This document shows positions 23,916 to 39,308 of a stretch of 64,000 bases of DNA, one piece after another (position 1 is the stretch's first letter; the number at the start of each line of letters is the position of its first letter). The notes beneath the pieces are model-generated. The model ran no database searches. It was given only the letters and a program-made list of their open reading frames with translations, and was not told where the DNA came from. The position numbers and the translations under genes were made by a program. Source of the stretch: a bacterium (GTDB lineage: Bacteria; Spirochaetota; Spirochaetia; Treponematales; UBA12059); contig DATKVB010000025.1 in assembly GCA_035530295.1 (NCBI GenBank), positions 114,552-178,551 on the forward strand. Reading direction: 5' to 3'.

Positions 23916-24287
23916 GTACGGACGTGGCCATCGCATCGTGTCAGCCTCGAACAGCTGTCGGAGGCAACGGACAACGCCGATGCCATCGGCCGCATGACCG
24001 TCTTTGCCCGCGCCTGCGCCTCTCTACGCAGACCCTCGGCTACTAACCGTAGAACCTGGCCATCCTCGTCCCCGGCTTTGGCCAACCTGGTCGGCGTATT
24101 TCAGTCGCAAACGCATCGCGGCAAGAGCCAGGGGGCGCTATGTTCTGTGGAGCGGCAGCCTGTGCCAGATGCGCCCCCTGCCGCGGGCTTCCGCTCCGCG
24201 GGTACGCGGCGCGGCGATCCCGCGGCTCCCCGAAACCCTGGTCATGTCCGCATTGCATTGGAAGCATGCCGGGTTTACTATCAAGCC

Positions 24288-24671
24288 ATGGACACCGCGT
24301 TTTCCGTAGACCCCCAGGACGCCCGCCGCTTCTTCGAGCGCAAGGCGCAAGCCCGGGCGGCCGCTCTCGACCAGCGCTTCGAGCGGGCCTGGGCAGAGGC
24401 GAACGGCATCATGGCGATGCTGCAGAGCGACTATGGCTACCTGCGCATCTGGCAGTGGGGCTCGCTGCTTGATCGTACCAGGTTTTCTGAAATTTCTGAT
24501 ATCGACATTGCCGTGGAAGGCGTCCCGGACACCGCGACGTTCTTCGAGCTCTACGGCAAGGCGATGGCGCTGACGACCCTGCCGCTTGATCTGGTCGAAC
24601 TGGAACGCATAGAACCAGTCCATGCAACTTCGATCCGCGAGCGTGGGAGGCTGGTATATGATGGAAGTTGA
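24288..24671 (+). CDS. Minimal nucleotidyltransferase (MNT) antitoxin
   Basis: WGSLL...SDIDIAVEG (GS-x10-DxD), LDLVEL, IRERG; overlaps the HEPN gene. Confidence 0.85.
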   Translation: MDTAFSVDPQDARRFFERKAQARAAALDQRFERAWAEANGIMAMLQSDYGYLRIWQWGSLLDRTRFSEISDIDIAVEGVPDTATFFELYGKAMALTTLPLDLVELERIEPVHATSIRERGRLVYDGS

Positions 24672-25137
24672 ACTGCTGTTGGCCGAGATTGCCAAGAATA
24701 TCGAAGTTGCGGATCGCATCCGTGACTTTATCGATGCCACCGAGCGCCACGACATAGCCATTCTGGGCAGGACGCCCGCGACGGCCCTCATGATGGCGTC
24801 CATGATCGAGAACTATTATACCTGCCTTGAGACCATGTTCCTGCGCGTTTCGCAGAACTTTGAGAACCATCTGGATGACAAGCGATGGCATCAGACCCTG
24901 CTCGATCGTATGACGCTCCAGGTACCCACGATCCGTGAACGGGTGCTCTCGGACCAGACGAGGAGCGATCTGGGCGAACTGCTCAAATTCAGGCATTTCA
25001 AACGGTATTACTTCGAGTTTGAATACGATTGGGACCGCATCGATTTCCTGCTCAAGAAGCTCAAGGATGTCCACCCGCACGTCAAAGAAGACATGCGGCA
25101 CTTCATGGACTTCCTGCGGGCAGCCGGGGAGAAATGA
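24658..25137 (+). CDS. HEPN-domain (HepT-like) toxin
   Basis: NYYTCLETMFLRV, WHQTLLDRM, ELLKFRHFKRYY; coupled to MNT. Confidence 0.8.
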   Translation: MMEVELLLAEIAKNIEVADRIRDFIDATERHDIAILGRTPATALMMASMIENYYTCLETMFLRVSQNFENHLDDKRWHQTLLDRMTLQVPTIRERVLSDQTRSDLGELLKFRHFKRYYFEFEYDWDRIDFLLKKLKDVHPHVKEDMRHFMDFLRAAGEK

Positions 25138-25831: not shown

Positions 25832-27058
25832 TTAGTCGATCATGATCAGCGGCTTGATGAAGCGCGCCACGGCGGCGAAGACAGGTACGGCGACCGAATT
25901 CCCGAACTGCTTGTATGCCCGGGTATCAGAAACTGGAATAATGAAACTATCAGGGAATCCCATGAGCCGTGCGCATTCGCGCGGCGTAAGCCTTCTTGGG
26001 TTCCGCCCCGCCTGCGCTATGAGAATTTCCGATCCATCCTTGTAGTATCGTGCGGAGAGGGTACGGGCAACCGAAGTCTCGGTGCAAAGACCATACCCAA
26101 AGCCATTGCCGAGCGAACGATGCTTGTCAGCATAGGATTGCAGGTATGCCCACAGCTTGTCGCTCAGGGTGTATTTGTCCTGAACCTTTCTCGTGCCGTG
26201 ATCGAAATAGCTGGACCCATCATGATCAAGAAAAGGCTCTGTGCCATCTGTCCTGTGAAGAATATCTCCAAGAACGGTCTTCTGCTTGTCTGGAAATGCG
26301 AACGAGTCCAGGTCGAACAGGACTGGCTCCCTGAAGCCGACGATAACGATTCGCTCTCTGTGTTGCGGCAGCCATTGCTGCGCATCCAGGATTCTGTATT
26401 GTACTGAATAGCCAAGGTCGTCCCTGAGTGTACTCAATATTACCTTGAACGTATTGCCGTGATCGTGAGAGTGGAGATTCTTCACGTTCTCCAGCAGAAA
26501 TGCCTTCGGTCTTTTCTCCGCGATGATGCGTGCGACATCAAAGAACAGCGTACCTTGCGTCTTGTCAGCAAATCCGTGCGCCCTTCCGAGGGAGTTCTTC
26601 TTGGAGACCCCAGCGATCGAAAAAGGCTGGCAAGGAAAGCCTGCGACCAGAACATCATGGTCAGGTATGGCATCGGCCGATATTTTCGTTATGTCTCCAT
26701 GAATGGGAGACTCATCGGGAAAATTGACGCCGTAGGTCTTCTGCGCATAATCATCCCACTCCGACGTGAAGACGCAGTGGCCTCCGACTGATTCGAAGGC
26801 AGTCCGCAGCCCTCCAATGCCGGCGAACAGATCTATGAAGGTAAAATCATGTCTTCCTTCGTTCTCGTGCTGTATGGCTTCCCTGATGATTGAGTGAAGA
26901 GCCTCTATGACATAGAACTTCGGTACGGTCTCCCCGTTGCGCCAGCGCCGCACCGTAGTGACATTCACGTGCAGTAATTTGGCTATATCGGACAAGGATT
27001 TGAATCGAAGTGCCTGTTCGAGGAGCGTATTGACGCTGGTGTCTTCTATATCTGCCAT
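25832..27058 (-). CDS. dcm: C5 DNA cytosine methyltransferase, Dcm/EcoRII-like, with N-terminal HTH
   Basis: IDLFAGIGG, GFPCQPFS, LENVKNL, PQHRER, LSARYYKDGSEILI, QFGNSV; N-terminal IAKLLHVNVTTVRRWRNG HTH. Confidence 0.93.
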   Translation of the reverse strand: MADIEDTSVNTLLEQALRFKSLSDIAKLLHVNVTTVRRWRNGETVPKFYVIEALHSIIREAIQHENEGRHDFTFIDLFAGIGGLRTAFESVGGHCVFTSEWDDYAQKTYGVNFPDESPIHGDITKISADAIPDHDVLVAGFPCQPFSIAGVSKKNSLGRAHGFADKTQGTLFFDVARIIAEKRPKAFLLENVKNLHSHDHGNTFKVILSTLRDDLGYSVQYRILDAQQWLPQHRERIVIVGFREPVLFDLDSFAFPDKQKTVLGDILHRTDGTEPFLDHDGSSYFDHGTRKVQDKYTLSDKLWAYLQSYADKHRSLGNGFGYGLCTETSVARTLSARYYKDGSEILIAQAGRNPRRLTPRECARLMGFPDSFIIPVSDTRAYKQFGNSVAVPVFAAVARFIKPLIMID

Positions 27059-27153
27059 ATTCACCACCTCGGGGAGAGATCCAGTACAGTATGCATTATT
27101 ATTTCCCCATAGGCAATACTGAATCGGTGCCAGTTTCTTTCCGATAATCGGGT

Positions 27154-28464
27154 ATGGCAATGACAGACTACAGAGAATTGGCCCGACACTTGAACTCGCT
27201 AGGGGTTACCCGCGCATACATGAAGGCGCTGAGCAACAATGACAATAGCAAGAATCAGATCTATTTGGGACCAAGTTTTGAGGCATTACAGCTGTTGCCC
27301 TTCGGCGAGATCCTTCAAGGAAGCGCCGGAGCCAATCCAAATCTAAAAGCATCCGTAAATTTCTTCTGGCTTTCCGAATCCGGTCGATTGGAAAGGGCCA
27401 TATATGCACAGCTCATCCTGTACCCGCAGTATCCGGAAGTCAGGCTTTCCGGCTTTTTGAAGGGCTGTGTTGCAGCACCTTCTGAATATTTGCGGCCCAT
27501 TGCAAGAGAGCAACGGACAGATAAGGACGGCAGATTTCTGATTCTCGGCGTAACCCCAGACGATCGCATCATCGGGTATCTGGCAGCACCGGGCAGGCAG
27601 GTCGCCAGGTCGATAGAAGCTGAATTTGAACAACTTTGCGGCAAGAAGCTATTCGTCGACTTCCCGCTTGGCAATCAGTCGGCTTTCTCAAGAAAGCTCA
27701 TGCTTATCGCGAAGCTCACGCAAATCGTCCATGCTGGCTGGCATCCATCTCAGAGACTCGACGCCGAAGGGCGTATGCTGAATTATGAAGCGCCGAACGC
27801 TGGAGGATACACTCTTGAATCATTATTTGGGATCATCCCGAACGGCATTTCAGAGCCCGATTACCTAGGATGGGAGCTCAAGGCCTTTGGGGGAAATCGC
27901 ATAACGCTAATGACTCCGGAACCAGACGCAGGATATTATGGAGAAAATGGCGCCGCAGCCTTTGTCCGGAAATATGGGCATGATGCGGGAAATGATACGA
28001 TATATTTTACTGGTATACACAGAGCGAATAGTCGAAATGATCTGACCGGGCTCACGCTCTCGACAATAGATTATGATGTAGTTCACGACAAGTTTACGGG
28101 CATCAATGGCGGATTGGCATTGTTCACCGATTCCGGAGAACCGGTGGCAATCTGGACTTTCAAACGACTCATCGCACACTGGGCAAGAAAACATGCATTG
28201 GCTGCATATGTAAAATACGAGAAGAGCGAAATCCAAAGCAGGCTGAATATTCGCTATCTCGCTCCAGCTCACTTGGGGGAAGGAACTGATTTTTCAAAAT
28301 TCATGGCTGCTTTCATTCAGGGAACGATCTACTATGATCCCGCACCAAAACTGTCCAAGGCAAGTACGCCGCATTCCCGCGTCAAGGCCCGCAGTCAATT
28401 CAGAATCAATAGCACGAGCCTCGGCGTTCTATATCACTCTTTCACAGACGAGCAGCTTCAATAG
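27154..28464 (+). CDS. MvaI/BcnI-family restriction endonuclease
   Basis: NDNSKNQIYLG, PEVRLSGFL, GYTLESLFGI.PN...PDYLGWELK, ITLMTPEP, RSQFR; divergent from the MTase; visibly AT-richer than flanks. Confidence 0.85.
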   Translation: MAMTDYRELARHLNSLGVTRAYMKALSNNDNSKNQIYLGPSFEALQLLPFGEILQGSAGANPNLKASVNFFWLSESGRLERAIYAQLILYPQYPEVRLSGFLKGCVAAPSEYLRPIAREQRTDKDGRFLILGVTPDDRIIGYLAAPGRQVARSIEAEFEQLCGKKLFVDFPLGNQSAFSRKLMLIAKLTQIVHAGWHPSQRLDAEGRMLNYEAPNAGGYTLESLFGIIPNGISEPDYLGWELKAFGGNRITLMTPEPDAGYYGENGAAAFVRKYGHDAGNDTIYFTGIHRANSRNDLTGLTLSTIDYDVVHDKFTGINGGLALFTDSGEPVAIWTFKRLIAHWARKHALAAYVKYEKSEIQSRLNIRYLAPAHLGEGTDFSKFMAAFIQGTIYYDPAPKLSKASTPHSRVKARSQFRINSTSLGVLYHSFTDEQLQ

Positions 28465-29532: not shown

Positions 29533-29784
29533 GCGGGGGAACCACAGAATGACGCGGGGGAACCATAGAACGTCGCGAAGTAATCATGGAACGTCGCGGG
29601 GGAACCATAGAACGTCGCGAAGTAATCATGGAACGACACGGGGGAACCATAGAACGTCGCGAAGTAATCATGGAACGTCGCGGGGGAACCATAGAACGTC
29701 GCGAAGTAATCATGGAACGACACGGGGGAACCATAGAACGTCGCGGGGGAACCATAGAACGTCGCGAAGTAATCGTAGAATGAC
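29533..29784. repeat. Tandem array of 12 x 21-bp units of two alternating types
   Basis: A = GCGGGGGAACCATAGAACGTC, B = GCGAAGTAATCATGGAACGTC; order A,A,B,A,B,A,B,A,B,A,A,B with minor variants. Confidence 0.95.
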
Positions 29785-30770: not shown

Positions 30771-30819
30771 GAGCCCGTCGGGCTTTGCCGGTTCTCCGCT
30801 CAGGATCTATACTCGTTCA

Positions 30820-31542
30820 ATGCGGTTGGGTCGGACTTCAAATGATGGCGAGTTCATACTCATGCTGGGCGATCGGGCCCATGTGGTTCGGTACTGGCAG
30901 GGTGGTACGCGGATAGGTGTTCAGGCGATCACGGGCGAACGGCAAGCCGCGGCGCAGGCATCGCGTTCAATCAGGGTCGATCCGCCAGCCGGAGCCACCC
31001 TCGTCGTCGACGCCAGGTTCTGGTCAGGACTGGCAGCGGATGATGCGCGCATCCTGTCTGGCCTCGCCGCGATGATAATCGCCGAATTGGCTGTCGCCGA
31101 GCCCGGCTCGGAGGCGCTGGCGGGCGCCTATGCTTTGGAGTTCGTAATCATCGCGGGGCGAATCGCGGCGCGCGGCGCTCGCTTTCTGGGAGCGTCGGGT
31201 CAGTGGGTCGAGCCCGATGGTGTCTGGTGTATCGATGACGCCATACGCTACATCGAACGCAACTATGCCGAGTCCTTTAGCCTGGACTGGTTTGTATCGC
31301 GCTGCGCCATCAACGTAACCGACTTCTCGAGGCGCTTCAAGGAGAAGGCAGGCTGTCCGCTCTTCGAGTTCATTAACCGCCAGCGTGTCGCGCGCGCCTG
31401 CGCCCTGCTTAAGTCCTCTGACCTGTCGATCATCGACATAGCGGAGGCGGTGGGCTACAACAATCTGTCTTTCTTCAACCGCTACTTCCTGCGCATCATG
31501 GGCCTTTCGCCCCGCGCGTACCGTACAGGTTCCGCAAAATAG
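30820..31542 (+). CDS. AraC-family transcriptional regulator
   Basis: C-terminal AIRYIERNY...FSRRFKE...IIDIAEAVGYNNLSFFNRYF..IMGLSPRAYR. Confidence 0.88.
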   Translation: MRLGRTSNDGEFILMLGDRAHVVRYWQGGTRIGVQAITGERQAAAQASRSIRVDPPAGATLVVDARFWSGLAADDARILSGLAAMIIAELAVAEPGSEALAGAYALEFVIIAGRIAARGARFLGASGQWVEPDGVWCIDDAIRYIERNYAESFSLDWFVSRCAINVTDFSRRFKEKAGCPLFEFINRQRVARACALLKSSDLSIIDIAEAVGYNNLSFFNRYFLRIMGLSPRAYRTGSAK

Positions 31543-31624
31543 TATCAGTGGCGGCCTCCACAAACTGAACATAGTGCAAGACCGCGCGCGAGAACCGTCC
31601 TATAGTCCAGGTATCAGGGAGGAC

Positions 31625-31903
31625 ATGATGGAAACCGATGATGGACCGGGTCAGGGTTGCGTGGCGATCGGCCAGTTGTCGCTTGAGGCCAACATCGTGG
31701 TTGCCGGCTCGAGCATGAGCGCCATGGATGTTGATCGAGCTCGAGGCGCCGGTCGCCTTGACATGGCCGTGCCGGCGGATCAGTCAGTCTACCTCGAGGT
31801 GGGTGGCGTCGTCGTGGCGGCGGGACTCCTCAGGAAGAAGCGCGGAAGCAGCGTGTTTGTGGTGACGCGGATGATGGCAGATGGCCAGGAGGTGCGGTTA
31901 TGA
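31625..31903 (+). CDS. Small protein, probable degenerate SPOA (FliM-C/FliN-like) domain
   Basis: LEANIVVAG...VYLEVGGVVVAAG.L.....VFVVTRM parallels the SPOA strand pattern; GGAGG RBS; ATGA overlap with fliN. Confidence 0.55.
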   Translation: MMETDDGPGQGCVAIGQLSLEANIVVAGSSMSAMDVDRARGAGRLDMAVPADQSVYLEVGGVVVAAGLLRKKRGSSVFVVTRMMADGQEVRL

Positions 31904-32145
31904 GGACAGGAACAATAGAGGATGCGATGGTGCGCATGCAGGTTGTACTGGGCGAGCGGAGCCTCTCGGTGCGCGACCTGTCGACAATAGCCAAGGGTTC
32001 GATCATCGAGCTCGAGTCCATAGCCGGCGAGCCGGTCGACCTGGTCGCCGCCGGAGAAGTCGTGGCCAGGGGAGAAGTGGTCATCATCGACGAGGCTTTT
32101 GGCATCCGGGTCACGGAGCTTGTCAGCCCGAGGAACGCGTCATGA
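31900..32145 (+). CDS. fliN: FliN-like flagellar switch protein (SPOA domain only)
   Basis: VVLGER.LSVRDL....GSIIELE..AGEPVDL...GEVVARGEVVIIDE.FGIRVTE. Confidence 0.88.
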   Translation: MRTGTIEDAMVRMQVVLGERSLSVRDLSTIAKGSIIELESIAGEPVDLVAAGEVVARGEVVIIDEAFGIRVTELVSPRNAS

Positions 32146-34031
32146 GCGCCGCCATCATCGACGACGCCATCAGCGACGCCAGCAGCGACGATGCCATCGT
32201 TCCGTTGCCCGCATCCATTCTGGGATCGAGGGATGGCAGGGTCGAAGGCAGGAGAATCAAGCGGTACGACTTCAGGCGGCCAGACAAGTTCTCAAGGGAA
32301 CAGCTGCGCACCATGCAGAACATCGCCGAGTCATTCTCCCGTCTTGCTTCCACGCGGCTGTCCGCGTCACTGCGCCTTCCATGCGATCTGTCGCTTGAGA
32401 CCGTTGACCAGCTTACCTACGACGAGTTCATGGCGCCGCTCGCATCGCCATGCGCCCTGGCTATCGCGACTATGGAACCGCTGCGGGGCCAGGTCGTCAT
32501 GCACCTTGACGCGGCGGCCAGCGACGCCATTCTGGAGCGGACCTTTGGCGCGATGCCGCTGCCGACGCCACCGGCGAATCCGCAGCCGCTGGCAATCGGC
32601 GGCCTTACCGACATCGAGGTGTCGCAGCTGGAGCGCGTCGTCACTTCGACTCTGGACGCGCTGGGAGCCGCATGGTCCTTCGTCGATGGTATCAAGCCCA
32701 GGCTCGAGCAGGTGGAGACCGAGGCGCGCTTCTGCCAGGTCGTGCCGCCGCGCGAGATGATAGTGCTGACATCATTCGTGCTGAGCGTTGGCTCGGTCAA
32801 AGGGAAGCTGGACATCGCCTATCCATTCCTGGTGCTGGAGCCGATCATCGGCATGCTGTCGGCCAGGTACTGGTTCGAAAAGCGCAACCCTGTGGAGTCA
32901 GGCCCCGGCGCCGTCACCGCGTGGCGCGCCCCGATGCCGGCCGAGCTGATGCTTGACGCTGGCGCATTGTCCATAGATGCGCTGCGTTCGCTCCGCAAGG
33001 GAGCCATCGTGCCGGTTCCCGACCTTGACAGAGGCCTTGGCTGGTTGCGGCTCGGTGGAGCCAGGGTAGCCGGGCTTGTGGATGTTCGCCGGGGCGATGT
33101 TCGCCGGGGCAGCGCCGCGGTAACCGCCGCCTTCGCTGACGCCGGTGCCGCCTCGAAGAGTGCCGTCGAGTCGAGGCAGGATCCCATGGCGCGCATGGCA
33201 GAAGAGGTGCGCGGCGGCATCACCGCTATCAATGCCAGCGTGTCGGCGGCGATGCAAACCATGGCCGCCCGCATCGACGAGCTCAAGGGTGGCCAGGAGG
33301 ATCTGTCCGACCGTATGCTCTTCGGGCAGTCAGACGCTTCGCTCGCCCGACCCGCGGCCAGGCCATTCGCCTCGCTCGCGGGTGCCCCGGCCGAGGCGCT
33401 GGCTCTGTTCCTCTCGGGTGAGCGCCCCCAGGTATGCGCCCTTATCCTGTGCCATGTCGATGATGGAATCGGGGCGCGGCTGCTGTCGCTTCTGCCCGAG
33501 GCCGTGCAGCCCGAGATAATGCGCCGTGTCGCGTCTATGAGCGGGGTGGCTCCAGACGTGCTGGCCGATGTGGAGCGGATACTGGACGTCAAGTTGTCTG
33601 CCATCGACAGGGCAGGCCCCGAAGCCGGAGGCATCGACAAGGCTGTCGGCATGCTGAACATGGTTCCACGCGAGGTGGAGAAGCGCGTCATAACGAGCCT
33701 GGACCGGACCGATCCGGAAATGGCCGAGTCTATCAAGCGCAGCATGTTTGTATTCGAGGACATCGTGCTCCTCGACGACGAATCGATACGCGCCGTATTC
33801 GAAGCGGCCGACGAGCGCGACATCATACTCGCTATGAAGCCGGTGGCCGAGGAGTTGCGCGAGCGCCTCTTTGGCCGATTTCCCGAAGACCGTCGTGAAC
33901 GCCTCCGGGCTGAATTCGCGAAGCTGGGTCGTATGCGGCTGGCCGAGTGCGACGCGGCGGGGTTCCGCATTGTCGAGGAGATACGGCGGCTGGAACAGGA
34001 AGGCCGCATCGTCATCATGCGGGATCGTTGA
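32142..34031 (+). CDS. FliM-FliG fusion protein (FliM middle plus degenerate SPOA, linker, FliG middle and C-terminal domains)
   Basis: FliM motifs YDFRRPDKFSREQLR, VDQLTYDEF, LTDIE, QVVPP.E, YPFLVLEPI; FliG motifs PF..L, ERPQ..ALIL, GG, MFVFEDI, IRRLEQEG.I in one uninterrupted 629-codon frame. Confidence 0.85.
   Translation: MSAAIIDDAISDASSDDAIVPLPASILGSRDGRVEGRRIKRYDFRRPDKFSREQLRTMQNIAESFSRLASTRLSASLRLPCDLSLETVDQLTYDEFMAPLASPCALAIATMEPLRGQVVMHLDAAASDAILERTFGAMPLPTPPANPQPLAIGGLTDIEVSQLERVVTSTLDALGAAWSFVDGIKPRLEQVETEARFCQVVPPREMIVLTSFVLSVGSVKGKLDIAYPFLVLEPIIGMLSARYWFEKRNPVESGPGAVTAWRAPMPAELMLDAGALSIDALRSLRKGAIVPVPDLDRGLGWLRLGGARVAGLVDVRRGDVRRGSAAVTAAFADAGAASKSAVESRQDPMARMAEEVRGGITAINASVSAAMQTMAARIDELKGGQEDLSDRMLFGQSDASLARPAARPFASLAGAPAEALALFLSGERPQVCALILCHVDDGIGARLLSLLPEAVQPEIMRRVASMSGVAPDVLADVERILDVKLSAIDRAGPEAGGIDKAVGMLNMVPREVEKRVITSLDRTDPEMAESIKRSMFVFEDIVLLDDESIRAVFEAADERDIILAMKPVAEELRERLFGRFPEDRRERLRAEFAKLGRMRLAECDAAGFRIVEEIRRLEQEGRIVIMRDR
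33081..33110 (+). repeat. In-frame 15-bp tandem duplication (DVRRG x2)
   Basis: GATGTTCGCCGGGGC repeated twice inside the fusion gene. Confidence 0.9.
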
Positions 34032-35340
34032 GGTTTGACTCCAGGCAGACATGCAGGCCGGCCTTGACCAGCCGTCTAAAGAACAGGCGCTCCACGTCGT
34101 TCCTGTCGCACAGGCTTCCAAAGCTTATGGACAGGACATCGCCGTGGCTTGTCATCGAAGCGGATGTCTTGATGGTGGGCGCGCAGTTCACCAGGATGTC
34201 CAGCCACTTTACCCTGGACGCGATCGGCTCGGGCAGATTCGCCTTGCCCATGTTGGACAGCACGCCGCTGAACAGCCTGTCGCCATAGATCTGCGACAGT
34301 GCGCGCATCAGCATGTTCTTGAGGGGAAGCGGCAACATGCGCACGAGGATGCTGCGCGACGCTTCCACATTACGCGTGATGATGCGCGTCAGCTCGCCCT
34401 TGTGCATGCCCAGCACCATCTGGCTGTGCACCGACTTGAGAATCTCATCGAAACTGTAATGCGCAAGCCTCGTGTCAAGCTGTGGCGTCAGGAAGAGGCT
34501 GAAATTGCGCATCGTCACCGATGGAAACACGAGGCGCATGTTGGCGGGGATTTCCAGCTTGATTGGCAGGCGCCTGAACCGGCTTGTGCCTGTAGATTCG
34601 GCTTCCTGGATATCCTGCAAGACAGCCAGGTACTGGGCGGCCATGTACTCGGTCAGGGTCGCGGCGTGACTCTTCGCCACCGCCAGGGCGGCCCGTGCCG
34701 ACAACCTGCCGGTCGTGATGCGCAGCTGGCCCAGCGGCAGTATCGCACCGGGTATGTGCCAGGCTGGCTTCTCCATCGGCGGGGCGGGCATGCCAGGGAC
34801 GCTATAGCGGGCGAATGAGTCTTCCCATTCTCCTGGTTCCGGGCTGCCCAGGGGGTCAAGGACTCCGTCTCCGTACTGAACATCGAGTCCGGACAGCCTG
34901 AAATATTCGCCCAGCAGGGTCTTGAGGAGTATCATGCCTCCGGTACCATCGGTGATGATGTGGCTTATCTCCAGGGCAATCCTGTCACGGTATACCCTGA
35001 CGCGATACAGGTGGGCGCCGGGGATGCCGGCCTCGGGCAGCTGCATGGGGTATTTTGAATCGGAGATGGGGGCCAGCGGTTCGCGGTTGCGCTCGAAGTA
35101 GTACCAGAACATTCCCCGGCGCATCTCGACATGGTAGTAGGGCAGGCGGCGGCTTATGGCCCGTATGGCCGTGGCCAGCATGTCGACATCCACCGGCCTG
35201 TCCAGTACAACCTGCAGCCTGAAGAAGGCCGTTGTCCTGGCGTTCATGTTGGCCGGATATATGACGGCCGCATGGTCAAGTGAAAACCATGGCGGCATGC
35301 GCGGCTGTTTTCGTCCCGTATCCATCGTCGATTCCGGCAT
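34015..35340 (-). CDS. CoA-dependent acyltransferase (alcohol acetyltransferase/condensation-like)
   Basis: HxxxDG motif SHIITDGTG, WFSLDHAA..YP, PANMR..FPS.TMRNF, LSNMG. Confidence 0.75.
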   Translation of the reverse strand: MPESTMDTGRKQPRMPPWFSLDHAAVIYPANMNARTTAFFRLQVVLDRPVDVDMLATAIRAISRRLPYYHVEMRRGMFWYYFERNREPLAPISDSKYPMQLPEAGIPGAHLYRVRVYRDRIALEISHIITDGTGGMILLKTLLGEYFRLSGLDVQYGDGVLDPLGSPEPGEWEDSFARYSVPGMPAPPMEKPAWHIPGAILPLGQLRITTGRLSARAALAVAKSHAATLTEYMAAQYLAVLQDIQEAESTGTSRFRRLPIKLEIPANMRLVFPSVTMRNFSLFLTPQLDTRLAHYSFDEILKSVHSQMVLGMHKGELTRIITRNVEASRSILVRMLPLPLKNMLMRALSQIYGDRLFSGVLSNMGKANLPEPIASRVKWLDILVNCAPTIKTSASMTSHGDVLSISFGSLCDRNDVERLFFRRLVKAGLHVCLESNLNDPA

Positions 35341-35349
35341 GCCCGTGCC

Positions 35350-36771
35350 CTATTTCTTCCGTGTCTTCTTTGCCAGGGTCTCGTCGAATACGACAACCGT
35401 TCCGGCCATGTTTATGACATCGCCCGACTCGAGGCGCTTTCGCGTCACCTCATGGTTGTTTACGGTAACCGGCGTGTCCGAGACCACCGTGTATATGTTC
35501 TTGGCCTCGTCGAACAGGATGGTCGCGTGTGACGCCTTGAGCGATGGATTGCCGGCTATGCTGATGTCGGCATCGGGAGCCGCTCCTATGACGGTCTGGG
35601 CGCCGGCGAGTTCAAAGAATCGTGTCGACGCGGGGCCGCCGCCGGGGCCGAAGAGGAGGCGCACGCCGGCACGGTCGGTCTCGCGCTCAAGCTTGAACAG
35701 CACGAGCGCCAGCCATGCCAGCGCCGCTATGCCTACGAACGCCAGGTACCAGACCGGCGGCCTTTGCGCGCTCTGTCCGAGCACGGTGCCGGTAAAGTAG
35801 TAGCGTGTCGCGGAAAGCTTGCGCCCGTCGGTGGTGCCGGTGGCCACGCGGACCCAGCGCTTCTCGCCGCGGGCCATGCCCGCGCGGTAGTCAACCGATA
35901 TTTCGGCAAGTACGTCCTGCCGTATCGTCTGATACACGTCTGCCAGCTCGTCGCCATCCTTCGCGTCAAAGGCGCGGCCGCCGGATTCACGGGCTATGTT
36001 CGCTATCTGCGGGTCGCGCTGTGAACCGAACCTCACGGCGTACACGGTGATGCCATCGCGTATTGCCTGGTCGATGACGCCCGCCGGGGTCGCGGTCGCG
36101 GTGCCCGATTCTGGATTGGGCTTGCCGGTATTCAGAGCGTACGGGTAGTTCTCGCCATCGGACAGGACAATCAGCACGCGCCGTCCAGACTCGGCCGCGA
36201 AGTCGCCAAGGCTGCGGCCAATGGACAGGTATAGCTCGGTAAAGGCGTCAGCCGGGGCTGGACGGCTTATCTCCTCCAGACTGCGCGCGGCATCGGCGCT
36301 CTGGCCACCCGGCGCGACCGCGCTCCAGAACCTGGTATTGAACACCGCAAGGCCAACGCGGTCCTTCGGCGATAACGCGCCCAGGAACGAGCGCGCGGCG
36401 ACCTTGGCGCGTTCAATGCGCATGTCGGCCGCGACGGTGGTTTCCTTGCCGTCCATGTCTGTCCACATGCTGCCGGAGTTGTCCAGCAACAGGAAGAACG
36501 ATATGCCGGCGTCAGCGTTTGGTTGAAGCGATACGTTTGTCACGGGCCGCGGCTGCCAGTCCTTGGCGTCGGCCGATTCCCAGACCTCGAACAGAGGTGG
36601 CTGTGTTCCGGGCGTTGTACCGAGTATTGGTGCCGAGACGTACAGCCTGGTTGTCTGGAGGCCCAGGAGCTTCTCGGTGCCTATCTGCGTTATGGACATG
36701 CCCTGGGCTCCGGCCACAGCGGCGGCGGCGCACAGCAGACCGATTGCCAGCGCGTATTTGAGACTCTTCAT
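35350..36771 (-). CDS. Membrane protein with extracytoplasmic vWA domain and cytoplasmic FHA-like domain
   Basis: Signal peptide, MIDAS LLDNSGSM...LSDGEN, one TM (VWYLAFVGIAALAWLALVLF), C-terminal FHA fold (TVIG, DISI, HA, L.SGDVI). Confidence 0.85.
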   Translation of the reverse strand: MKSLKYALAIGLLCAAAAVAGAQGMSITQIGTEKLLGLQTTRLYVSAPILGTTPGTQPPLFEVWESADAKDWQPRPVTNVSLQPNADAGISFFLLLDNSGSMWTDMDGKETTVAADMRIERAKVAARSFLGALSPKDRVGLAVFNTRFWSAVAPGGQSADAARSLEEISRPAPADAFTELYLSIGRSLGDFAAESGRRVLIVLSDGENYPYALNTGKPNPESGTATATPAGVIDQAIRDGITVYAVRFGSQRDPQIANIARESGGRAFDAKDGDELADVYQTIRQDVLAEISVDYRAGMARGEKRWVRVATGTTDGRKLSATRYYFTGTVLGQSAQRPPVWYLAFVGIAALAWLALVLFKLERETDRAGVRLLFGPGGGPASTRFFELAGAQTVIGAAPDADISIAGNPSLKASHATILFDEAKNIYTVVSDTPVTVNNHEVTRKRLESGDVINMAGTVVVFDETLAKKTRKK

Positions 36772-36797
36772 GGCGATGCTCCTGTTCTCGGGGCGGA

Positions 36798-37691
36798 TCA
36801 TCCGAAGTACCCGTATATGAATTTGGCCTTGCCTACGGCCACCACATCCTCGGGCTTGAGCGAACGACCGGCCGGCGGTTCGTCGTTGACCAGGAGACGT
36901 GCCCCGGCCTTCTCCTGCTGGAGTAGCACCTTGCCCTTGGCGAGGTGGACCGTGGCGTGCAGTGGTTCGACATCGGGATAGCCCTTGAGGACGATGTCGC
37001 AATCAGGCGCCGCGCCTATCTTCATGGTGCGGCTCAGTATGCTGTATTCCTTGCCCTTGAGCGGGCCGTTGAGGAGCATCAAGGCGCCCGACGAGAATTG
37101 GTTCTCGAACACCGACCAGAAGATGCTCAGCGACAGGCCAAAAAGTGCAAGCCCCGCGAGCAGGGACAGCGGTTCGTCGGGAAAGAAGAACGAGAGGCCG
37201 GCAAGCGCGCTTCCGCCGGCCAGCCCGCCCAGCACTCCGCCCGCGAGTCCTACGAGGATCTTGCGTGTCGAACGCGCGCGGAGCCCCTCGGTCAGGGCCA
37301 GGAATATGCCGACTATCGTCCACGCGACGCCGCTGGCCACGGCAAGGCCCACGCCATTGCGCGCGCTCGCGGTGCGCCACAGTGACGAGCCCGCGGCGAA
37401 GAGGAACACCTGGCCGGCCATCACGCCCAGCGCTCCGGCAATCGAGCCGAAGACGGCCCCGAAGAGCAGCCCCTTGAAGGCCTTTGACCTCGACGATACG
37501 ACGACGCCCTCGAAGGAGCCGAACAGCGCTCCGAAGACCAGCCCCAGGAGCACACCCTGGGCCAGGGAGAACAGGAGATAGCTCGGGAACTCCTGCTGGT
37601 AAAACTGCAGGGCAAGAAGGAGCGGCCAGAGCGCCAAGGCTCCCAGTAGGCCGAAAACGGCCAGAAAAATGCGTTTCAGCATAAGCGACAT
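36798..37691 (-). CDS. Polytopic Gly-rich membrane protein with C-terminal FHA-like domain
   Basis: About six TM segments, then L.LLNGPLKGKEY.I....KIG...CDIVL...HA...L..EDVV.VGK. Confidence 0.8.
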   Translation of the reverse strand: MSLMLKRIFLAVFGLLGALALWPLLLALQFYQQEFPSYLLFSLAQGVLLGLVFGALFGSFEGVVVSSRSKAFKGLLFGAVFGSIAGALGVMAGQVFLFAAGSSLWRTASARNGVGLAVASGVAWTIVGIFLALTEGLRARSTRKILVGLAGGVLGGLAGGSALAGLSFFFPDEPLSLLAGLALFGLSLSIFWSVFENQFSSGALMLLNGPLKGKEYSILSRTMKIGAAPDCDIVLKGYPDVEPLHATVHLAKGKVLLQQEKAGARLLVNDEPPAGRSLKPEDVVAVGKAKFIYGYFG

Positions 37692-37703
37692 CGATGTCTC
37701 CTT

Positions 37704-39308
37704 TTACTTTTGTCCACCCAGGGGTGGGAGCAGGGCCGACAGTATGAGCCTGTCATGGTCAGCGGCTATCTTGAGCGAGAATACCTGCGGCTCGTATCCG
37801 TCTGACTCGACGCGGAACTGGCGTACGGCGCCCGTCGTCAGCCAGCCCTCGGGAAGTTCCTCAGGCGGCACCCAGGAACCATTGGCCATGACCATCAGCC
37901 TGGCCGGAATATCCAGGCCATCGACCGAGTCACGCGCCGTCGCCGTCACCGACAGCGGACGCTTTCCTTCCTCCTCGGTGCGCATATGCAGGTCCATTCC
38001 CTCTGTGCCTCCTGGCGCGGAGAATGGCATGACCCTGAAGCATTCCCAGCGCACCGTGCCGCCGACTATAAGCTTGAGCCGGTACGCTCCAGGAGCCAGG
38101 AACAGTCGCCCTGACTCCAGAGAATAGTACGGGTCAGAATCGGCTGTTGGCATGAACGCCAGCGTCAGAGGCGACAGGCTGGATTCGGGCATGTCCTTGC
38201 CATCATCGATGAACAGCCTGGCCCGGACGAACAGCTCCTCGGCGCGCTTGTCGGACTTGGGCACACGCACGGTCAGGCGCAGCTGGCCATACGAGTCGGG
38301 CATCGCCCAGCGGTAGACGTACCCCGCGTGCCAGGCATACCAGCCGCCGGCCGACATGGCGCCAAGGATGATCAACAAGAGCGGCAGCACCGAACGCTTG
38401 CGCCGTGCCTTTGGATAGCGAGGCTCATCGACAATGGACCCGTGCATAAGCCCGACCAGGGCGTTGACTATGGGTTCGGATCTGTAGCGCCGCAGGTATC
38501 TCTCTATGACCAGAACCAGCTTGTCCATGCTCTGAAAGCGTCTGGCAGGATCGGGCTGCATCAGCTTGCGGATTAGTCTGTCCACAAAGGGATGCACGCG
38601 GCCATTGATCCTGCCAGCACGCCGATACCGGCCCTTGCGTATCATCACGAGGGTCTCGGCCGAGAAGTTTCCGGGATACGGTTTCTTGCCCGTTACCATC
38701 TCGTAGAGCATGACGCCAACAGAATAGATGTCGGCCCGCTTGTCGACATTCTTTGAGTTCTCTATCTGTTCAGGCGGCATGTAGCATGGGGTTCCAAGCG
38801 TCATGCCTTCCTTGGTCAGGCCAGCGTCGTTGTCATCCTCGGAGGCCGCGATGCCGAAGTCGGCCAGTTTTATATCGCCCTTCCTGGATATGAGAATGTT
38901 GCCCGGCTTCACGTCCCGATGTATGACGCCCATGGAGTGGGCATAGGCAAGCGCCTTGCAGACCTGCAGCACGATGAAGAGCGAGAGTTCGCTCGACAGC
39001 GATCGCTGCTTCTTTATCAGCTGGTCAAGAGACGTGCCATCGACATACTCAAGCACCATGTAATTGGAATTGCCTTCCTTGAAGTGATCGAACACCTGCA
39101 CGATGTTGTCGTGCTTGAAGTCCATCAGTATGCGGGCTTCTCGCTTGAAGCGTTCCGCGATTGATGAGCTGCCCCGCATGGTCAATTTCTTGAGCACCAC
39201 GTAGCGCTTGAGCGTCGGGTGCACGGCCTTGAGCACCGCGCCCATGCCTCCGCGCGCGACCAGTGACTCGATCCTGTATTTTCCTATGTACTCGGGCAGC
39301 TCGGCCAT
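37704..39308 (-). CDS. Hanks-type Ser/Thr protein kinase with TM and extracytoplasmic C-terminus
   Basis: RGGMGAV, VVLK, RFKREA, HRDVKPGN, DFGIA, GTPCYMPPEQ, DIYSVG; TM at about residues 310-330. Confidence 0.95.
   Translation of the reverse strand: MAELPEYIGKYRIESLVARGGMGAVLKAVHPTLKRYVVLKKLTMRGSSSIAERFKREARILMDFKHDNIVQVFDHFKEGNSNYMVLEYVDGTSLDQLIKKQRSLSSELSLFIVLQVCKALAYAHSMGVIHRDVKPGNILISRKGDIKLADFGIAASEDDNDAGLTKEGMTLGTPCYMPPEQIENSKNVDKRADIYSVGVMLYEMVTGKKPYPGNFSAETLVMIRKGRYRRAGRINGRVHPFVDRLIRKLMQPDPARRFQSMDKLVLVIERYLRRYRSEPIVNALVGLMHGSIVDEPRYPKARRKRSVLPLLLIILGAMSAGGWYAWHAGYVYRWAMPDSYGQLRLTVRVPKSDKRAEELFVRARLFIDDGKDMPESSLSPLTLAFMPTADSDPYYSLESGRLFLAPGAYRLKLIVGGTVRWECFRVMPFSAPGGTEGMDLHMRTEEEGKRPLSVTATARDSVDGLDIPARLMVMANGSWVPPEELPEGWLTTGAVRQFRVESDGYEPQVFSLKIAADHDRLILSALLPPLGGQK

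Follow-up and report, generated by a model that had tools for sequence, protein, structure and literature searches.

The window analysed here is a 64,000-nucleotide stretch of contig DATKVB010000025.1 (positions 114,552 to 178,551; assembly GCA_035530295.1) from a bacterium of the Treponematales, and at 32142-34031 of its forward strand it carries a natural fusion of the flagellar rotor proteins FliM and FliG. The fusion is a single stop-free frame of 629 amino acids, in which a FliM middle domain and a probable, degenerate SPOA domain are followed by a coiled coil and the middle and C-terminal domains of FliG. An earlier note, made from the sequence alone, had described this frame and the absence of the FliG N-domain, and the open reading frame (ORF), Pfam, hhalign and an AlphaFold model bore out the description. 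The note had taken the fusion alone, whereas it is in fact the fourth and last gene of a cassette that has a regulator gene and an operator. A natural FliM-FliG fusion was not found described in the literature, supplements and subscription papers being outside the coverage, nor was a paper with data on mixed-ring dominance found. The features of the locus are the following.

30808-30813, forward: predicted -10 box for an araC transcript with almost no leader (TAnnnT, 6-11 nt before ATG)
30820-31542, forward: AraC/XylS-family regulator, 240 amino acids, with a degenerate cupin-like sensor domain and a conserved double helix-turn-helix
31532-31549, forward: half-site 1 of the direct-repeat operator, predicted AraC site, overlapping the araC stop codon
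31564-31583, forward: operator half-site 2, predicted AraC site, at the -35 position
31601-31606, forward: predicted -10 box of the sigma70 type, with constant spacing to half-site 2 (T 24/25, A 22/25, T 22/25 promoters)
31625-31903, forward: gene X, a divergent SPOA (FliN-like) protein of 92 amino acids; FliN hydrophobic-patch motif missing
31900-32145, forward: minimal FliN, 81 amino acids; hydrophobic-patch motif kept
32142-34031, forward: FliM-FliG(M+C) fusion, last gene of the cassette
32259-32294, forward: FliM N-proximal strap (residues 40-51), the best retained segment
32295-32879, forward: FliM middle domain (residues 52-246), with a lengthened and altered GGxG loop (residues 135-154)
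32916-33134, forward: probable degenerate SPOA domain (residues 259-331)
33183-33344, forward: heptad linker helix (residues 348-401), predicted to form a parallel homo-oligomeric coiled coil; Gln385 in the core
33360-33608, forward: FliG middle domain (residues 407-489), ERPQ at 33420-33431
33627-34022, forward: GG hinge and FliG C domain, with MFVF at 33744-33755 and a dipole-less torque helix at 33882-33926

Pfam matched the fusion to FliM (residues 42-239, E 1.5e-42), FliG_M (418-489) and FliG_C (519-625) and to no other family. Neither FliG_N nor a glycosyltransferase or PilZ domain, as in known clutch and brake proteins, was matched in the 629 residues, and the TIGR00207 match begins at model position 112. 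The fusion scored 185.9 bits against the FliG model TIGR00207 and 160.2 bits against the FliM model TIGR01397, below the curated cut-offs of 226.7 and 219.6, respectively. It is built from known C-ring parts, yet it falls outside both FliG and FliM on their defining features. The FliM middle domain is 44 % identical to the FliM of the same genome, and it matched FliM middle-domain crystal structures with target TM (template modelling) scores of 0.90-0.94. The SPOA domain had no Pfam match; residues 259-313 aligned to the cassette FliN profile with an hhalign probability of 81 % (E 1.2e-5), and the probability for gene X was 92 %. The AlphaFold model (predicted TM score 0.55) contained SPOA-like strands and one helix of 54 residues at 348-401.

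A protein search returned 31 matches, of which 29 are near-full-length homologues with the FliM, FliG_M and FliG_C combination, and other genomes contain full-length matches. In run X5, from a second study, two overlapping contigs span 33107-34100 in frame, including the linker-FliG junction at which a stop or misassembly might have been suspected; contig X1 spans the whole stretch without difference and may be the source of the window DNA itself. Among 495 pairs, the 14 closest (including two duplicates) had a ratio of non-synonymous to synonymous substitution (dN/dS) of 0.16-0.33, i.e. the fusion is under purifying selection. A misassembly or a pseudogene is ruled out by the homologues, the in-frame X5 contigs and this selection. 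Strains differ by two in-frame duplications, one of 27 nt in the N-terminal part (window 32141-32198), absent in runs X4 and X5, and one of 15 nt in the SPOA region (window 33081-33110).

The wider family was collected by a profile search giving 150 clusters at 50 % identity, of which 84 single-stretch, near-full-length relatives were kept and 66 partial or multi-stretch ones were dropped; one of the 84, P0176, later grouped apart in the tree. In these relatives the linker positions 356, 360, 363, 367, 371, 374, 378, 381, 388 and 392 are hydrophobic in 65-100 % of sequences, and Q385 is present in 65. A three-copy model of residues 343-402 scored 0.71, compared to 0.01 for the best control. 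Of 30 solved pairs 20 attained the mark, as did one of 23 single chains, this calibration being on two copies only. The model runs gave in-register parallel pairs with contact agreement of at least 92 % and a predicted local distance difference test (pLDDT) score of at least 80. The models support self-association of the linker; they do not fix the number of chains, and a generic likeness to solved coiled coils may lift the score.

The gene order AraC regulator, X, fliN and fusion was found at all 32 loci that have an AraC orthologue and downstream DNA. The loci were collected with an AraC alignment; L183, which stops at a contig edge, and L194, which is unrelated, are outside the 32. In two distant lineages araC lies downstream of the cassette rather than upstream. 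The genes overlap from stop to start, by ATGA on both sides of the window fliN and by RTGA at 30/32 and 29/32 junctions across the loci. Gene X has neither a Pfam nor an NCBIfam match; it is related to FliN by hhalign (96 %, E 5e-9), and its model (pLDDT 80) has SPOA domains of Spa33, SpaO, YscQ and FliN as top Foldseek matches. The cassette FliN (Pfam FliMN_C, E 1.3e-19) scored 79.1 against TIGR02480, slightly below the cut-off of 84.05, and it is the sole stand-alone FliN found in the host genome by phmmer, the motor operon having FliY. A search for riboswitches and other RNA gave only one tRNA across 14 loci. In genome G033 there are three divergent copies of the whole cassette (L013, L045 and L046), all with an AraC and an operator variant of their own.

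The regulator has a clear HTH_18 match (E 3.8e-20) and 28 invariant columns among 16 orthologues. Its sensor domain was matched to AraC_binding in one of 13 orthologues, with Atlas leads of 0.86-0.91 to cupin and AraC_binding clusters, and no ligand was identified from the orthologue Pfam matches or these leads. The TAnnnT box before the araC ATG is present here and, judged by eye, at 6 of 13 related loci; a promoter role for it is probable from its position. Across 25 distinct cassette promoters half-site 1 is conserved 31-33 bp before half-site 2. When the window's own site was omitted from the matrix, the operator here scored 45.1 against 18.8 for the next best in the 3.37-Mb genome. The exact operator pattern was matched in 8 of 41 genomes, always just before the cassette, and once in the controls. 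A wider AraC regulon is ruled out, as no second operator was found in the host genome. From co-occurrence and position we infer that AraC binds the direct repeat and activates transcription. One could also imagine that the module reports motor assembly or load to AraC by partner switching and leaves rotation unchanged. Injectisome AraC activators work by partner switching, and the degenerate sensor domain here has weak Atlas leads to ExsA_N clusters (0.86). Such a sensor loop is, however, very unlikely in our view, as the operator occurs once per genome, only before the cassette, which gives the loop no output beyond itself.

The host genome (99 % complete) carries canonical fliM, fliG1, fliG2 and fliY elsewhere, together with one FliF, one FlhA, one FliH and one close MotA/MotB. 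The fusion has not taken the place of the motor fliM or fliG, since these canonical genes are intact. The single FliF, FlhA and FliH indicate that there is no second flagellar system; such a system, or a cognate stator, is likewise ruled out by these counts, by the single MotAB and by a comparison of 21 regions, in which nothing outside the four genes is conserved. In those regions the cassette flanks are variable and have no flagellar genes, and no membrane or export partner is conserved beside the cassette. The charged motif of the host MotA is unchanged in an alignment of 17 MotA sequences. All near-complete cassette carriers that were checked also have canonical FliM and FliG2. At L073 and L074 (genomes G043 and G039) motAB is missing from the main flagellar cluster, and the genome has a divergent MotA (33-34 % identity) at another place; in G510 (L115, L122, L127-L131) there are ten FliM/FliG-like matches, several of them divergent.

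The retention of canonical surfaces was scored over the 84 relatives against residues conserved in 42 FliG2 and 44 FliM sequences. Escherichia coli residue numbers follow PMC6079164 and were placed by the spacing of five FliG2 columns, all of them charged in 42/42 sequences. The roles of elements were mapped onto the fusion by segment and are not measured contacts (10.1101/2024.04.30.591856, PMC11302681, PMC11087270). The torque segment aligns without gaps to the host's own FliG2 and to Thermotoga maritima FliG (1lkv). These formal alignments agree with what the earlier note had read by eye: R281 is replaced by D583 and D288 by A590, while R297 (R599), MFxF and the GG hinge are kept. K264 is also kept (K566), and D289 has become E591, which is still acidic. 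The dipole of the torque helix, +2/-2 in FliG2 (42 sequences) and FliG1 (21), averages -0.9/-0.5 in the family and is -1/+1 in the window copy. With a retention of 0.13 this helix is the lowest of 15 FliG segments, and R281 is the second lowest retained of 142 FliG2-conserved positions. The charge class is retained at K264 in 78 and at R297 in 77 relatives, compared to 12 at R281, 20 at D288 and 18 at D289. In Vibrio the equivalents of K264 and R297, K284 and R317, affect counter-clockwise (CCW) rotation only and are read as stabilising a conformation (PMC6079164).

The N-terminal CheY-binding decapeptide (LSQxEIDALL), present in 42/44 canonical FliMs, is absent from the window fusion, which has three of its eight fixed letters, as the earlier note had also claimed. 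The helix at 550-557 had a retention of 0.26 and the strands facing CheY by homology 0.41-0.42. The hydrophobic cores are kept at 0.88-0.96. Among the FliM elements, the strap, which binds the neighbouring FliN dimer in the canonical ring (10.1101/2024.04.30.591856), was retained at 0.92, helix 1 at 0.71, the post-middle helix at 0.72 and GGxG at 0.78; the corresponding values for FliG were 0.89 for GG, 0.89 for MFxFED and 0.76 for EHPQ. The note had further pointed to FGAMP in place of GGxG in the FliG-binding loop and to ERPQ in place of EHPQ. Both changes stand in the window copy by alignment (own FliM reads FGGAG), but they are confined to a subclade and do not define the family, in which 47/84 keep GGxG and 40/84 the H of EHPQ. 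The H-to-R change accompanies the loss of GGxG in 19 of 20 R-type members, which form one clade and are not independent. Two relatives, P0022 and P0057, are fusions with a canonical-type FliM N-terminus, possibly through recent conversion or, for P0022 (a 2-kb contig), a chimeric contig.

The two halves of the fusion have different histories. In IQ-TREE analyses the FliG halves formed one side against canonical FliG2 (17 vs 17 sequences, support 98/96; 11 vs 12, 93/87), and 46 of 51 fell in one group on the FliG2 side in a FastTree analysis. In the same rows the FliM halves do not form a single clade (approximately unbiased (AU) test p 1.1e-4; 3e-7 with a mixture model), although the rows were picked after the first tree had been viewed and long branches are present, so that the p values are generous. 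The L056 FliM half groups with the FliM of its own genome (100/99) and shares its private residues (68 % vs a median of 56 %), and the L057 half groups with its own FliM and a related one (99/98). Joining the L056 FliG half to its own FliG2 was rejected (p 0.011). For the cassette fliN, host tracking gave no clear signal. It would appear from these groupings that the FliM half has repeatedly been replaced by the host fliM. The host-grouping halves in some lineages suggest that the fusion must stay compatible with the host ring.

Compatibility with host parts would also be expected of a soluble decoy, i.e. a module, clustered by its coiled coil, that soaks up free FliM, FliY, FliG2 or FliH and thereby blocks or limits the assembly of new motors without being part of a rotating ring; host-tracking FliM halves suit any binding to host parts. 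The fusion has no FliF anchor, its linker is predicted to make it multivalent, the cassette FliN keeps the hydrophobic-patch motif, and overexpressed FtgA, a FliN binder, blocks flagellation (PMC11522434). A sink has, however, no obvious need for a FliG_C in which K264/R297, MFxF and the terminal helix are kept, and we consider the decoy rather unlikely. The fusion, FliN and X could alternatively self-assemble into a ring or spiral apart from the motor and serve outside the flagellum, for instance as a polar landmark, sorting platform or signalling hub. Every lateral-contact domain lies within one cassette, the FliM-FliG interface is changed on both sides in the window subclade, the variable flanking genes are not flagellar, and the injectisome SPOA domains are marginally ahead of FliN among the fold matches of X. 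Still, no conserved membrane or export partner accompanies the cassette in the 21 regions, the cassette is seen only alongside a canonical motor, and repeated replacement by host fliM is unexpected for an orthogonal structure, which makes an independent scaffold unlikely.

The cassette is patchily distributed. In an order-level sample, for which three candidates were scored per genome, the fusion was found in 32 of 401 genomes (family f1 22/34, f3 0/222, f4 6/54, f5 2/88, f6 1/2) and gene X in 33 of 401, divided among the families in almost the same way. In a phylum sample the fusion was found in 6 and X in 13 of 401 genomes, nine of the latter with E < 1e-14. Of the genomes newly found with X, two have the fusion visible and another has its locus at the end of a contig; the four weak matches were left out of the count. 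The cassette was not found in 3 of 12 congeneric genomes either, nor in any of the 8 genomes of genus g23, two tested members of which had no FliM/FliG and MotA matches. Of 34 loci found with the regulator, 33 are from metagenome-assembled genomes and 32 are labelled as spirochaetes; many are the same contigs as those of the G-numbered genomes and are not independent. The earlier note had connected the fusion to the asymmetric rotation of the two polar motors of spirochaetes. It is true that Borrelia FliG1 is asymmetrically localised and that the asymmetry is chemotaxis-independent (PMC7225975). However, that the cassette was not found in any of the 222 f3 genomes or in three congeners, together with the dedicated regulator, means that the cassette is not a general mechanism of spirochaete asymmetry, and the FliG half derives from the FliG2 side, not from FliG1. 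A pole-specific rotor subunit setting opposite rotation at the two cell ends is thus highly improbable.

Other FliM-FliG architectures were seen in P0089, P0097, P0119, P0132, P0135, P0136, P0148, P0150, P0152, P0156, P0160, P0174 and P0180. They include FliM with a full FliG, with two SPOA domains or with DUF4116 repeats, and FliG_M preceding FliM. As they scatter on the trees, they suggest repeated independent fusions.

What is directly established is the architecture, the conserved cassette, the unique repeat, the purifying selection, the losses (FliG_N, CheY peptide and dipole) and the retention of ring-contact motifs. On this basis we give about an even chance to the reading that the cassette supplies an inducible rotor subunit, torque-dead and blind to CheY, that is built into the native C-ring and serves there as a clutch or biases rotation to CCW. 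The AraC regulator would bind the repeat and turn on one coupled cassette transcript. The SPOA domain of the fusion would pair with X and FliN, like FliM-C:FliN3, while the strap, helix 1 and post-middle helix would link the fusion to native FliM/FliY neighbours and FliG_M-FliG_C stacking would link it to FliG2. With these lateral contacts kept and a host-compatible FliM, the fusion should be able to join the ring. Entry without a FliF anchor may occur through an exchangeable pool of extra FliM or during motor assembly; E. coli FliM and FliN exchange and outnumber FliG (PMC10128058), which offers a possible route. The coiled coil would bundle a few protomers into a rigid patch. Passing stators would then meet a helix without the +/- dipole, in which K264 and R297 stay and may stabilise the CCW conformation. 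Lacking the dipole and the CheY tether, such a dummy tooth would lower torque and stator grip and bias the motor to a CCW or stalled state. In its most specific form the proposal is that a signal induces a patch of pre-joined rotor subunits, stapled together by the coiled coil and built into the C-ring as missing teeth, which disengages stators and locks the CCW conformation, with a FliM half repeatedly refreshed from host fliM and a torque-dead FliG half; this form we put forward tentatively, as somewhat doubtful.

Several observations weigh against co-assembly as a torque-dead subunit. Retention is low for several of the lateral or switching elements, at 0.25 for the first FliG_M helix, 0.31 for Helix MC and 0.38 for the PAA-equivalent loop, and in the window subclade the paired H-to-R change and GGxG loss may form a private interface. 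Most of the CheY peptide (at least 5/8 letters) is kept in 3/84 relatives and all three main charge classes in 6/84. The FliM half of the window copy does not itself track its host (own FliM rank 10/44; 44 % vs a median of 43 %), five of 51 FliG halves lay outside the main clade in the larger FastTree analysis, and long branches could falsely unite the FliG halves. The single Vibrio mutants R301A, D308A and D309A left the relation of CCW and clockwise (CW) speed unchanged (PMC6079164), so that charge loss need not abolish torque. In E. coli FliF sets the number of FliG copies, and these are not exchanged (PMC10128058), so that the fusion could hardly enter the FliG tier once a motor is complete. 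The chemotaxis-blind, co-assembling, stator-disengaged subunit of the earlier note has gained support from family-wide conservation and host-tracking FliM halves, but co-assembly, torque-deadness and the clutch role are still what we infer from these two lines.

The canonical C-ring protomer FliG:FliM:FliN3 (Salmonella 8umd/8wiw; T. maritima 4fhr/3soh, 1lkv) has the same FliM middle, FliG_M and FliG_C folds and probably the same SPOA fold, and the cassette keeps its strap, MFxF, GG hinge, K264 and R297 and would supply three SPOA domains. It differs in that the fusion is one chain with a coiled-coil linker, without FliG_N, CheY peptide or torque dipole, and in that the cassette lies outside the flagellar operons, under its own regulator, supernumerary to an intact motor. 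FliG1 of Borrelia is likewise a second, divergent FliG beside FliG2 (10.1101/2020.05.18.101634, PMC7225975), but it is unfused and keeps the +2/-2 dipole, and the host genome has a FliG1 in addition to the fusion, the FliG half of which is on the FliG2 side. In Campylobacter jejuni C-ring genes are also duplicated and specialised; there the duplicates are unfused core motor parts (PMC6946799), in contrast to the patchy, separately regulated cassette. The clutches and brakes EpsE, YcgR/FlgZ and FtgA conditionally inhibit the assembled motor, the job proposed for the cassette. They are unrelated proteins and attach to the rotor or the stator externally (PMC13432727, PMC11522434), whereas the cassette inhibitor would be a modified rotor subunit. 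The injectisome SctQ proteins (Spa33, SpaO, YscQ) have the SPOA fold in common with X. Injectisomes are under AraC-family control, as is the cassette; unlike them, the cassette has no injectisome genes, and its FliM and FliG domains are clearly flagellar.

If the module does enter the ring, motility would be controlled by a modified part of the rotor. The module would then also serve as a natural tool to learn the number of torque-competent FliG teeth that a stator requires, the effect of CheY-blind subunits on switch cooperativity, and whether a C-ring can take up unanchored protomers. Even otherwise, selection has separated ring-building from stator- and CheY-facing surfaces (K264/R297 kept, R281/D289 lost), matching the Vibrio mutants, and the fusion is a single-chain FliM-FliG protomer usable for structural work.

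Elsewhere in the window, genes for a Ser/Thr kinase, FHA and vWA-FHA proteins and then a 441-aa ORF without a Pfam or NCBIfam match lie convergent on the fusion (34015-39308, reverse strand). Upstream of a tauE-like gene, 29533-29766 holds 5.1 tandem copies of a 42-bp period made of alternating 21-bp units; the array reads as a 104-aa heptapeptide-repeat ORF without a Pfam match. A divergent C5 cytosine methylase and an MvaI/BcnI-family endonuclease occupy a stretch of lower guanine-cytosine content at 25832-28464, and the nucleotidyltransferase and HepT-like gene pair at 23994-25137 is likely a toxin-antitoxin module.

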